In this document: positions 2,653-25,878 of the stretch, piece by piece
How the letters are laid out: each line of letters begins with the position of its first letter
How positions within the stretch are numbered: position 1 is the first letter of the stretch
NCBI RefSeq assembly: GCF_988242995.1
Contig: NZ_OZ547043.1
DNA length: 64,000 nt
Direction: 5' to 3' (one strand)
Notes under the pieces: generated by a model
What the model was told of the DNA's origin: nothing
Databases searched by the model: none
What the model saw: the letters and a program-made list of their open reading frames with translations, nothing else
Program-made: the position numbers and the translations under genes

Positions 2653-2760
2653 TTACTTCCGCTTATTCAGCGAGTTCACGATCAGACTGGCAAGAATGCC
2701 AGCAATGATCGGAGCCGCTAAATCATGCCAGAAGGCCATGCCCAGCTCTGCGAGCGTCAT
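2653..2760 (-). CDS. ldrD: Type I toxin Ldr family, 35 aa (MTLAELGMAFWHDLAAPIIAGILASLIVNSLNKRK)
   Basis: 35-aa peptide at the 3' end of the 80-aa ORF-track frame; ATG (plus-strand cat) at 2758-2760; hydrophobic helix plus KRK tail typical of Ldr toxins. Confidence 0.8.
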   Translation of the reverse strand: MTLAELGMAFWHDLAAPIIAGILASLIVNSLNKRK

Positions 2761-2804
2761 ATAGCCGCCTGTGTTGTAATGACAACGTTTCGCGGCTATT
2801 CTTG

Positions 2805-2872
2805 TATTGTTTGGATGCAAGAATGGCCCCCGTGGTGTTGTCAGGTGCATACCTGCAACGTGCGGGGGTTTT
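2805..2872 (+). ncRNA. rdlD: Candidate Rdl antisense RNA (antitoxin) of LDR copy 1; ends approximate
   Basis: Plus-strand GC-rich hairpin followed by TTTTCTCTC at about 2850-2876, antisense to the ldr mRNA leader; placement from known LDR architecture. Confidence 0.35.
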
Positions 2873-3054
2873 CTCTCTCCAGCAACCAATGCCACCAGGG
2901 ATTAAGCCCCCGCAACATTGCGCCTCACCGGAACCCTTCCGGCTTGACGCTGATTCTACGACTGTTTTTCTGTTCCGGAATCCATCACGTCTTCACTCTG
3001 TGCTGCGCATTCCGCAGAATATTATCCGCTTGCAACCGTTGCATTTTTCTTACG

Positions 3055-3085
3055 AAAAAGGCCGCAGAGTTTCACCCCTGCGGCC
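3055..3085 (-). terminator. Rho-independent terminator downstream of ldr copy 2
   Basis: Same hairpin as at 2577-2602 with A-run on plus strand. Confidence 0.6.
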
Positions 3086-3135
3086 TGATCCGGGCGCAAA
3101 TTGCCATTACGGCAGCCTGACGCCCGCATGACACG

Positions 3136-3243
3136 TTACTTCCGCTTGTTCAGCCAGTTCATGATCATACTGGCAAGAATGCCAGCAATGACCGGAGCCG
3201 CTAAATCATGCCAGAAGGCCATGCCCAGTTCTGCGAGCGTCAT
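3136..3243 (-). CDS. ldrD: Type I toxin Ldr family, 35 aa (MTLAELGMAFWHDLAAPVIAGILASMIMNWLNKRK)
   Basis: 35-aa peptide at 3' end of the 80-aa ORF-track frame; ATG (plus-strand cat) at 3241-3243; differs from copy 1 at 5 residues. Confidence 0.8.
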   Translation of the reverse strand: MTLAELGMAFWHDLAAPVIAGILASMIMNWLNKRK

Positions 3244-3291
3244 ATAGCCGCCTCTGTTGTAATGACAACGTTTCGCGGCTATTCTTGAGTG

Positions 3292-3356
3292 GTCTAGAGT
3301 CAAGATTAGCCCCCGTGGTGTTGTCAGGTGCATACCTGCAACGTGCGGGGGTTTTC
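3292..3356 (+). ncRNA. rdlD: Candidate Rdl antisense RNA of LDR copy 2; ends approximate
   Basis: Same GC-rich hairpin plus T-run as in copy 1, antisense to ldr leader. Confidence 0.35.
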
Positions 3357-3718
3357 TCTCTCCAGCGACCAATGCCACCAGGGATTAAGCCCCCGCAACA
3401 TTGCGCCTCACCGGAACCTTTCCGGCTTGCCGCTGATTCTACGACTGTTTTTTACCGTCAGCACCCGGCAATCTTCCTCATTGCGTGATGCCTTCCAGCT
3501 TAATTTCTTTATTTGCATTAGTTGCAGTTCATATCCGGGCTGACTCCAGACTGGTAGTGAAATGCGCAATTTTGTAGAATTGCGCCTCCTCGCGACCTCC
3601 CCAGTGAATCTGTTGCCTCATTTTTTACATACTGCGTATTCGACTTCTCCACCTGTTGCGCAAGAGAAACTGGGTTTATTCATTTTTGCGAGGCCGACTT
3701 CTTTCTGGACAGGACTTT

Positions 3719-22699: not shown

Positions 22700-22934
22700 G
22701 TTTTCCAACCGATTAATCATAAATATGAAAAATAATTGTTGCATCACCCGCCAATGCGTGGCTTAATGCACATCAACGGTTTGACGTACAGACCATTAAA
22801 GCAGTGTAGTAAGGCAAGTCCCTTCAAGAGTTATCGTTGATACCCCTCGTAGTGCACATTCCTTTAACGCTTCAAAATCTGTAAAGCACGCCATATCGCC
22901 GAAAGGCACACTTAATTATTAAAGGTAATACACT
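22700..22934 (+). promoter_or_regulatory. cspA promoter region and long 5' untranslated leader (cold-box region); bounds approximate
   Basis: AT-rich region upstream of cspA; function from established cspA biology, elements not individually mapped. Confidence 0.45.
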
Positions 22935-23147
22935 ATGTCCGGTAAAATGACTGGTATCGTAAAATGGTTCAACGCTGACAAAGGCTTCGGCTTCATCACT
23001 CCTGACGATGGCTCTAAAGACGTGTTCGTACACTTCTCTGCTATCCAGAACGATGGTTACAAATCTCTGGACGAAGGTCAGAAAGTGTCCTTCACCATCG
23101 AAAGCGGCGCTAAAGGCCCGGCAGCTGGTAACGTAACCAGCCTGTAA
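22935..23147 (+). CDS. cspA: Major cold-shock protein CspA (70 aa)
   Basis: Recognised sequence [70 protein letters not shown] with RNP motifs. Confidence 0.97.
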
Positions 23148-23171
23148 TCTCTGCTTAAAAGCACAGAATCT

Positions 23172-23202
23172 AAGATCCCTGCCATTTGGCGGGGATTTTT
23201 TT
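23172..23202 (+). terminator. Rho-independent terminator of cspA
   Basis: Hairpin ATCCCTGCCATTTGGCGGGGAT followed by TTTTTTT. Confidence 0.75.
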
Positions 23203-23334
23203 ATTTGTTTTTCAGGAAATAAATAATCGATCGCGTAATAAAATCTATTATTATTTTTGTGAAAAATAAATTTGGGTGCAATGAGAATGCGCAACGCCGT
23301 AAGAAAGGCGGGAATAACTTCCCGCCGAAGACTC

Positions 23335-23487
23335 TTACTCTTTCAAATTGCAGGCTAAAAATGCCGCCAGCTCATAACTCCCCTGTTTAATATGCAATTC
23401 ACACAGTGAATCTCTTATCATCCAGGTGAAAAATAAAAGCGTGAAACAAATCACTATTAAAGAAAGTAATCTATATTTCTGCGGCAT
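23335..23487 (-). CDS. hokA: Hok-family type I toxin HokA (50 aa); the in-frame upstream extension in the ORF track may correspond to the mok leader frame
   Basis: 50-aa peptide MPQKYRLLSLIVICFTLLFFTWMIRDSLCELHIKQGSYELAAFLACNLKE; ATG at plus-strand cat 23485-23487; antisense sok RNA expected nearby but not mapped. Confidence 0.85.
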   Translation of the reverse strand: MPQKYRLLSLIVICFTLLFFTWMIRDSLCELHIKQGSYELAAFLACNLKE

Positions 23488-23764
23488 TCCCAGCCCCCTA
23501 TGTTGATTTCCAACGAGTAAGAGGCTAACCTTATGGTGTTCAGGCATAGGGTAGCCTCACTTTGATTTATAGTCAGGTGGGGCTTTTCTCTGTCTGCCTT
23601 TCGGTGAATACCTGAGACAAACAGTCTCAAGCACCCGCAGCTATTCTAGCTTAATAAGTTCGTTTCTTCTCCTTGATATAATCCTAAAAAAATCTCATAA
23701 AATTAATATATGAGACAATCTTTATTCAGCAGAAGATTATTAAAGGTTGCTCTATTATTTAGCG

Positions 23765-23796
23765 ATAAAAAAGCCTGCCAGATGGCAGGCTTTTTA
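23765..23796 (-). terminator. Rho-independent terminator downstream of glyS
   Basis: Hairpin AGCCTGCCAGATGGCAGGCT flanked by A-run and T-run (bidirectional character). Confidence 0.7.
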
Positions 23797-23808
23797 ATAA
23801 CGGCGTTA

Positions 23809-25878
23809 TTACTGTAACAGCGAAATATCCGCAACGCGCAGGAACAGTTCGCGCAGTTTCTCCAGCATGGTCAAACGGTTGATACGCAATTCTTTGTCAT
23901 CAACCATGACCATCACTTTATCGAAGAAGGCATCAACCGGTTCACGCAGCTCAGCCAGTTCGACCAGCGCATCCTGGTAACGACCTTCAGCAAAGTACGG
24001 CTCCAGTTTATCGCGCAGCACAACCACCTGCATCGCCAGTTTAATTTCTTCCGGCTCTTTCAGAGTAGAAGCATTCACGCGATCGCTCAGCACTTCGTCA
24101 GACTTCGCCAGAATGTTAGATACACGTTTGTTCGCCGCCGCCAGTGCAGCAGCTGCATCCAGGGTACGGAAGTGCGATACCGCCTTCATACGGGCATCGA
24201 AATCTGCCGGACGAGTCGGACGACGCGCCAGTACCGCCTGGATGGTATCAACGGTATAACCTTCGTCCTGATACCAGGCGCGGAAGCGACCGAGCATAAA
24301 GTCGATAACATCATCAACCACGTTGGCATTAGTCAGCTTATCGCCATACAGACGCACTGCTTCTTCGGTCAGCGTTTGCAGATCAAGGTTGAGGTTCTTC
24401 TCAACGATAATGCGCAGCACACCAAGTGCGGCACGACGCAGCGCAAACGGGTCTTTATCGCCTTTCGGATGCTGACCGATACCGAAGATACCTGCCAGGG
24501 TGTCCATCTTGTCAGCAATCGCCAGCGCACAAGCCACTGGGTTAGACGGCAGGTCATCACCGGCAAAACGCGGCTGATACTGCTCGTTCAGCGCCACTGC
24601 CACATCTTCCGCTTCGCCATCGTGACGCGCGTAGTGCATCCCCATAACGCCCTGGGTGTCGGTGAACTCGAAGACCATGTTGGTCATCAGGTCGCACTTG
24701 GACAGCAGGCCCGCACGGGTTGCGTGGTTAACGTCAGCGCCAATCTGTTCAGCAATCCAGCCAGCCAGCGCCTGGATGCGGTCAGTTTTGTCGCGCAGTG
24801 TACCCAGCTGTTGCTGAAACAACACGGTTTGCAGGCGCGGCAGGTTATCTTCCAGACGTTTTTTACGGTCAGTGTTGAAGAAGAACTCGGCATCCGCCAA
24901 ACGTGGACGAACGACTTTCTCGTTACCAGAGATAATTTGCTGCGGATCTTTCGATTCGATGTTGGCAACGAAGATAAAGTTCGGCAGCAGTTTGCCGTCG
25001 TTCGCGTACACCGGGAAGTACTTCTGGTCACCTTTCATGGTGTAAACCAGCGCTTCAGACGGCACAGCGAGGAATTTCTCTTCAAATTTCGCGGTCAGCA
25101 CAACCGGCCACTCCACCAGCGAAGCCACTTCTTCCAACAGGCTTTCGCTTAAGTCAGCGTTACCGCCAATCTTACGCGCCGCTTCTTCGGCATCGGCTTT
25201 AATCTTCGCCTTACGTTCTTCGTAATCGGCGATGACTTTCCCGCGCTCACGCAGAATTTCCGGATACTGATCGGCATTGTCGATAGTGAATTCCGGCTCG
25301 CCCATAAAGCGGTGGCCGCGAATCACGCGATCGGACTGAATGCCCAGAATGGTAGCCGGAATAACTTTGTCGCCCAGCAGCAGGGTCACGGTGTGCACCG
25401 GACGCACGAAGTGCACGTCGCTTGCACCCCAACGCATCAGTTTCGGGATCGGCAGTTTCGCCAGCGAAGTCGCAACCATATTCGGCAACAGTGCTTCAGT
25501 GCTTTCGCCCTTCACGTGGGCGCGATACAGCAGCCATTCACCTTTATCGGTAGTCAGACGCTCAGCCTGGTCTACGGTAATACCGCAACCACGCGCCCAG
25601 CCTTCTGCCGCTTTGCTCGGTTTGCCTTCAGCGTCGAACGCCTGAGCAATCGCCGGGCCGCGTTTTTCGATTTCACGATCCGGTTGCGCTTCCGCCAGGT
25701 TAGCTACTTTCAGCGCCAGACGACGCGGAGCAGCAAACCATTGAACGGTGCCGTGTGCGAGACCAGCGTTATCCAGCTCCGCAGTAAAATTCGCAGCAAA
25801 GGACTCAGCCAGGCTGCGCAGTGCTTTTGGTGGCAGCTCTTCAGTGCCAATTTCCACCAGGAAAGTTTTCTCAGACAT
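23809..25878 (-). CDS. glyS: Glycine--tRNA ligase beta subunit GlyS (689 aa)
   Basis: 689-aa ORF recognised as GlyS; immediately downstream of glyQ. Confidence 0.95.

Follow-up and report, generated by a model that had tools for sequence, protein, structure and literature searches.

The 64,000-nt stretch of E. coli DNA analysed here (contig NZ_OZ547043.1; hereafter the window) carries a chromosomal type I toxin-antitoxin locus, hokA/mokA/sokA, between cspA and glyS. This locus is best read, with a probability of about 0.85, as a wild-type, uninterrupted allele, R1-like by homology, most likely under correct regulation yet phenotypically silent in laboratory conditions. The analysis establishes the integrity of the sequence, its homology and its predicted folding; the inference of a regulated but silent locus draws on the near-identical locus of E. 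coli C, which reportedly gave no post-segregational killing (PSK).

The uninterrupted hokA locus

HokA, of sequence MPQKYRLLSLIVICFTLLFFTWMIRDSLCELHIKQGSYELAAFLACNLKE, is formed by the last 50 aa of a 70-aa open reading frame (ORF). As expected for a member of the Hok/Gef family of small hydrophobic toxins of ~50 aa, it matched Pfam HOK_GEF (PF01848) with 83 bits (E 9e-24, cut-off 22), and the NCBIfam HokA equivalog NF007290 was matched with 131.9 bits (cut-off 89). The equivalog-level match, together with the presence of cspA and glyS on either side, identifies the gene as the hokA ortholog, and hokA is annotated by RefSeq at the cspA-glyS site in every record inspected. The other 20 codons of the ORF, which begin at the ATG at 23547, are upstream of hokA and in frame with it, and this is the same frame as the mokA annotation in NC_000913.3. 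The overlapping mok frame has its own Shine-Dalgarno (SD) sequence, GAGG, 7 nt upstream of its ATG. By homology, hokA would be translated via coupling to mokA.

K-12 MG1655 (NC_000913.3; hokA b4455, mokA b4647, sokA b4614) has the locus at the same site, with flanks ~97-98% identical to those of the window and an intact hokA ORF, the product of which differs from the HokA of the window in 2 aa (G35E and N47K; E35 and K47 in K-12). In the alignment the window is collinear with the K-12 sequence on either side of IS150 and contains no extra DNA, whereas in K-12 the 1443-bp IS150 occupies 3720633-3722075, and the annotation treats mokA and sokA as pseudogenes. The damage to the K-12 locus exceeds a simple insertion: besides carrying IS150, K-12 is without the 39 nt corresponding to window 23520-23558, which comprise the mok SD, the mok ATG at 23547, dcb, and the -10 box and start of sokA. 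The initial annotation had described an intact 50-aa HokA ORF with an in-frame mok-like extension and no insertion sequence (IS) up to the glyS terminator, and had described the K-12 locus as IS-disrupted; the database matches and the alignment bear out all of these statements.

An uninterrupted locus is found at the same cspA-hokA-glyS site in E. coli C (NZ_CP020543.1, 346202-346354). Its HokA is 100% identical to that of the window (WP_001135738.1), and its tac, ucb, mok SD and ATG, dcb, 3' hairpin, fbi and sok promoter are all as in the window. There are 10 differences between the two over ~490 nt, of which four fall inside the mRNA, at 23500 (synonymous in mokA), 23344 (synonymous in hokA) and 23292/23291 (3' untranslated region), and two in the promoter discriminator at 23638-23639. 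The substitution at 23500, located 3 nt upstream of the sok -35 box, is the only change private to the window. Allele comparison, including the K-12 alignment, revealed no mutation in the window locus that inactivates the mok/hok coupling or the fold-back elements, and on this point the description of the locus as intact stands.

The hok SD of the window is AGGGGG, as it is in E. coli C and most sampled alleles, while K-12 and JJ1887 have AGGAGG. The possibility that AGGGGG is a private inactivating mutation was rejected, as this form is the commoner one among the sampled intact loci and is present in E. coli C.

RNA elements and their predicted folding

An R1-like copy on pMTY1886_IncFII (NZ_CP128973.1), with a Hok 100% identical to R1 Hok, was used as a stand-in for R1. 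Its alignment with the window had a mean column identity of 73%, with 175 of 454 columns identical. Both loci have the same order of elements and the same predicted refolding switch, and share the motifs GGnGCUUGAG (tac), AGCCCC (ucb), GAGGC (mok SD), AGCCUCUUAC (dcb) and GCnCC (fbi), as well as a 3' hairpin after the stop codon, a metastable hairpin and an antisense promoter opposite dcb. They differ in that the hokA locus is chromosomal and R1 plasmid-borne, in that the hokA mRNA is ~30 nt shorter than the R1-like one, and in fbi, which reads GCACCC in hokA and GCGCC in the R1-like locus. Furthermore, mokA is in frame with hokA in the window, whereas mok of R1 is out of frame with hok. The residue labels used for Mok in PMC9841398 agree with an out-of-frame R1 mok.

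Rfam RF01794 ('sok') matched the hokA-sense strand at 23485-23636 with 125 bits (gathering score 59, E 1e-29). The match is full length (model positions 1-157) and extends from the 5' end of the hok mRNA (GGGUGCUUGAG) to the hok AUG. As both the tac/ucb stem and the SD/dcb stem belong to the RF01794 consensus, what the family describes is in effect the hok leader with the target of Sok, and the leader structure typical of hok mRNAs is thus represented in the window. The putative hokA promoter has a poor -35 box (GAGAAG); the hok promoter of R1 is likewise weak by consensus.

On the opposite strand, the putative sokA promoter matches TTGCGC-17-TATCCT of the R1-like locus in both position and sequence, and the end of the spacer, GTAAGAGGC, is common to both. 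The K-12 sokA remnant (3722077-3722111) maps to 23559-23593, which is the 3' 35 nt of SokA in the window. The putative SokA RNA is predicted to form a hairpin followed by the U-tract CUUUUCUCU (-21.3 kcal/mol, z = -4.5), and its size may be compared with the 52-nt target length quoted in PMC3562002. At the sequence level, the window therefore contains the parts expected of a cis-antisense Sok, namely the mok initiation region as target, a promoter of its own and a terminator.

The probable full-length hokA mRNA (23636 to 23271, 366 nt) had a predicted minimum free energy (MFE) of -139.8 kcal/mol (z = -8.5 versus shuffles). In this fold, tac (nt 1-12) pairs with fbi (nt 351-363) with a predicted probability (P) of pairing between tac and the 3' end of 1.00 and a duplex energy of -18.9 kcal/mol, and nt 54-58 of ucb pair with the mok SD (nt 79-83). 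When the 3' tail is taken back to the hairpin at 23326-23307, nt 1-8 of tac are predicted to pair with nt 52-58 of ucb instead (P = 0.70). Shuffling of the last 20 nt of the mRNA gave a mean end-pairing P of 0.11, and 0.5 or more was reached in only 2 of 30 shuffles. The R1-like hok mRNA, included as a positive control, showed the same switch behaviour with an end pairing of 1.00, and the tac/fbi pairs of the two loci differ in a compensatory manner (GGGUGC/GCACCC in hokA, GGCGC/GCGCC in R1-like hok). For the hokA mRNA of E. coli C, the predicted full-length and truncated folds were identical to those of the window, with the same P values. The window thus has the sok promoter, tac and fbi, which the initial annotation had named as elements to be sought, and the predicted fold is that of R1 hok. 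With the exception of the SD/dcb detail considered below, the predictions for the window reproduce the published R1 model, in which the full-length RNA is closed and the truncated RNA open (PMC9841398).

By analogy with that model, a stable mRNA of ~366 nt would be made from a weak promoter and would be translationally silent at full length owing to the tac-fbi pairing and the sequestering of the mok SD by ucb. Slow 3' trimming as far as the hairpin at 23326-23307 would remove fbi, whereupon tac would pair with ucb and expose the mok start region. Translation of mokA, in frame with hokA, would then open the hokA start. The short, unstable SokA (~23539-23593, + strand) would bind the mok start region and lead to decay of the mRNA. 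The part of the 3' hairpin, which would stop 3' exonucleolytic trimming and set the end of the truncated mRNA, follows the work on R1 that PMC9841398 summarises. The features of the locus and its surroundings are listed in Table 1.

Table 1. Features of the hokA/mokA/sokA locus and of other regions of the window
Feature	Position	Strand	Details
hokA coding sequence, 50 aa + stop	23335..23487	-	ORF list, Pfam, NCBIfam; ATG at 23487
mokA reading frame, 70 aa	23335..23547	-	ORF list; stop codon common with hokA
Probable full-length hokA mRNA, ~366 nt	23271..23636	-	5' end by homology to R1 hok +1 / Rfam model position 1; 3' end placed just after fbi
Putative hokA promoter -10, TAGAAT	23643..23648	-	6 nt upstream of probable +1; aligned to R1-like TATGAT
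tac element GGGUGCUUGAGA	23625..23636	-	mRNA nt 1-12; conserved with R1 GGCGCUUGAGG
ucb / anti-SD box AAGCCCC	23579..23585	-	mRNA nt 52-58; agrees with Rfam consensus structure
mok SD GAGG	23555..23558	-	mRNA nt 79-82; aligns with R1-like mok SD and Rfam model positions
dcb box GCCUC	23521..23525	-	mRNA nt 112-116; mok SD partner in the open form; Rfam pairs GAGGC with GCCUC
3' stem-loop GGCGGGAAGUUAUUCCCGCC	23307..23326	-	Just after hokA stop; terminator-like hairpin, 8 pairs; aligns with R1-like GGCGGGCGCAGGCCCGCC
fbi element UCUCAUUGCACCC	23274..23286	-	mRNA nt 351-363
Putative sokA promoter	23503..23531	+	-35 TTGATT (23503-23508), 17-nt spacer, -10 TAACCT (23526-23531)
Putative sokA antisense RNA, ~52-55 nt	23539..23593	+	5' end placed by homology; 3' end from K-12 sokA annotation
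cspA	22935-23147	+	ORF list; neighbour on hokA 3' side
glyQS terminator hairpin	23767-23795 (about)	-	AAAAAGCCUGCC-AUCU-GGCAGGCUUUUU; read from sequence, directly after glyS stop; locus boundary on glyS side
glyS	23809-25878	-	ORF list; stop codon 23809-23811
Ldr ORFs, 35 aa each	~2653-2760 and 3136-3243	-	
Rfam rdlD matches	2809-2874 and 3292-3357	+	81.7 bits and 87 bits, respectively

The locus extends beyond the interval initially annotated, which began at 23300, as fbi and the probable 3' end of the mRNA lie at 23286-23271.

In intact E. coli alleles, substitutions are densely packed in one place only, 23540-23553, where 6-7 changes in 14 nt separate the window from three other alleles (L010, L012 and L013). 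This patch spans the start of mok together with the SokA 5' end and occurs as two haplotypes, GAGGCUACCCUAUGCCUGA and GAGGCCCCUCUAUGCAUAG, the other leader positions being invariant. It may reflect diversification of the recognition sequence between Sok and its target.

In the allele of strain JJ1887 (L011), one nucleotide is missing immediately ahead of the hokA ATG (23488), which puts mokA and hokA in different frames. Further changes affect the hokA -10 box (23647), the tac-adjacent nt 12 (23625) and fbi (23279 G>A), and the predicted pairing of tac with the 3' end is down to 0.83.

A further small ORF, ysaE (23 aa, MRNAVRKAGITSRRRLLLFQIAG), is intact at 23287-23358 on the + strand, antisense to the 3' end of hokA and to the 3' untranslated region including the protective hairpin. 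Its product differs from K-12 YsaE in 3 of 23 residues. A search of NCBIfam gave no match for YsaE, and in most strains it bears the PGAP label 'hypothetical protein'.

IS150 insertions and the activity of the locus

A 751-nt query and a 181-nt core query (23470-23650) were compared with 5426 complete E. coli genomes. The hokA site was present in all but one of these (5425), and was uninterrupted in 2830 as judged by the longer query; with the core query, 2800 of 5426 (52%) were intact. No genome among the 5426 was 100% identical to the window over the 181-nt core. The uninterrupted locus is the ancestral state; about half of E. coli genomes, K-12 among them, have had it broken by IS150. The state at the hokA site in K-12 is a derived one, of which the window is a useful reminder. 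Intact hokA/sokA was already known, as Pedersen & Gerdes described it for E. coli C in 1999 (Mol Microbiol 32:1090; cited in PMC3562002), and hokA is routinely annotated by RefSeq. Given that description and the uninterrupted state of about half of the sequenced E. coli genomes, the window locus is ordinary; it carries little weight as a discovery, since the uninterrupted form is that of the E. coli majority and not special to the window.

Junction types were assessed in an evenly spaced sample of 60 records. The K-12-type junction was found in ~27% of them and an oppositely oriented IS150, at 23558-23564, in ~18%. The latter junction occurs in two backgrounds (L003 and L014), the flanks of which differ by several percent. 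In strain WB61 (L015), an IS150 is accompanied by an inversion that cuts hokA at 23488, and ATCC 8739 (L005) has a different IS3-family element by hokA, with the left junction common with K-12. 

At least four junction types are thus seen in the leader among L002, L003, L005, L014 and L015, at window equivalents 23488-23564, and the right junctions of the K-12-type and opposite-orientation IS150 are within 1 nt of each other (23559 and 23558). The occurrence of several distinct IS150 junctions in one short leader segment may merit a dedicated look, although it concerns other genomes and not the window. In strain 405 (L016), an insertion of ~450 bp lies outside this segment, between the cspA terminator and the hokA 3' end (equivalent 23205-23264), and carries a yidD-like gene for a membrane protein insertion efficiency factor.

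As to activity, the locus of E. coli C is said in PMC3562002 to be one that 'displays the same characteristics' as hok, with regulation by sokA 'in the usual manner'. R1 mediates PSK, whereas the intact hokA locus reportedly does not: for hokA of E. coli C, neither PSK nor activation by rifampicin was found (Pedersen & Gerdes 1999, as cited in bioRxiv 10.1101/2025.08.07.668861). According to the same preprint, in which it serves as a previously characterised toxic control, the HokA coding sequence is toxic only when over-expressed. The initial suggestion of a functional chromosomal hok/sok system is thus upheld in so far as the parts are intact and canonical; that the system is functional is unsupported and, as regards the classical killing phenotype, is contradicted by the published evidence.

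It might instead be proposed that the locus is an active killer or stress module, in which HokA would depolarise the membrane once SokA was lost, for example through transcription shut-off, phage infection or stress, and that the IS150 hits represent selection for its disarming. The intactness of all regulatory elements, their predicted R1-like fold and the toxicity of over-expressed HokA are consistent with this, as is the disruption of ~48% of genomes, which is clustered in 23488-23564. In addition, R1 hok is described as lethal even in one chromosomal copy when Sok is absent (PMC9841398), and copy number alone would therefore be no bar to activity. However, E. coli C, with the same HokA and a near-identical mRNA, was reported to show neither PSK nor rifampicin-induced killing, and the locus is kept intact in 52% of genomes at no obvious cost. 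Moreover, the clustering of IS150 could arise equally from target-site preference and descent. Such a module is considered unlikely. Somewhat more doubtful still is its conditional activity as a killer in natural E. coli, for example on phage-induced transcription shut-off or against plasmid addiction, with the clustering in ~48% of genomes due to repeated disarming selection and not to target preference. If this were true, the independent insertions of IS150 and the rearrangements, which lie within ~75 bp of the start of mok and the promoter of sok, would be a record of selection, on which the window itself is silent.

At the other extreme, the locus might be an inert relic, in which weak signals (the poor hokA -35 box and the GGGGG hok SD) block the production of HokA and the elements persist by recent common ancestry. 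The consensus sigma-70 scan of the window, in which the hokA and sokA promoters both escaped detection, the sequence AGGGGG in place of AGGAGG in the window, E. coli C and most sampled alleles, and the published lack of PSK would all fit this proposal. Yet the E. coli C locus is cited as hok-like and sokA-regulated (PMC3562002), and the R1 hok promoter is weak by consensus too. Furthermore, alleles with up to ~4% divergence elsewhere all have the same ORF, tac, ucb, SD and dcb, and fbi is changed only in JJ1887. The likelihood of a relic is accordingly rated as low. A chance origin of the ORF and elements in an AT-rich intergenic region, for which nothing but the short length of the ORF speaks, is practically negligible in view of the Pfam (E 9e-24), NCBIfam (131.9 bits) and Rfam (E 1e-29) matches, the fold z of -8.5 and the fact that 5425 of 5426 E. 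coli genomes have the locus at this site.

A correctly regulated locus that is silent in laboratory conditions remains the preferred reading, and several points weigh against it. As the promoter scan missed both promoters, those of hokA and sokA were placed by homology to the R1-like locus, and the +1 and 3' end of the mRNA and the 5' end of SokA were likewise all placed by homology. The negative PSK result is a secondary citation and refers to a plasmid-borne clone of another strain's allele. Lastly, in the predicted MFE structure of the truncated window mRNA, the mok SD pairs locally (nt 92-95) and not with dcb, whereas the SD/dcb stem is the truncated-form MFE for the alleles of 042, RIVM_C036204 and JJ1887. 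For the window allele, the open form is hence only partly reproduced by thermodynamic prediction.

Neighbouring and other features of the window

On the 3' side of hokA, the Rfam cspA thermoregulator spans 22775-23202 (501 bits). The top NCBIfam match of the cspA product is the CspA subfamily (172 bits); in many RefSeq records the gene at this site has the PGAP name 'CspE', which is an annotation quirk only.

On the other side, the glyQS terminator hairpin gave a sub-threshold match to Rfam STnc370, and it was missed by a consensus terminator scan of the window. Between this hairpin and the hokA promoter, at 23686-23715 on the - strand, there is an AT-rich inverted repeat, TCTCATA-N9-TATGAGA, followed by T7, which could be a second, weak terminator shielding hokA from glyQS read-through. 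The repeat, which has too few G-C pairs, was not flagged by the terminator scan.

Elsewhere in the window, two tandem ldr/rdl type I toxin-antitoxin units, ~483 bp apart, are located at 2653-3378. At the ldr site of E. coli C and ATCC 8739 a single ldrD is annotated, as compared with two units in the window.

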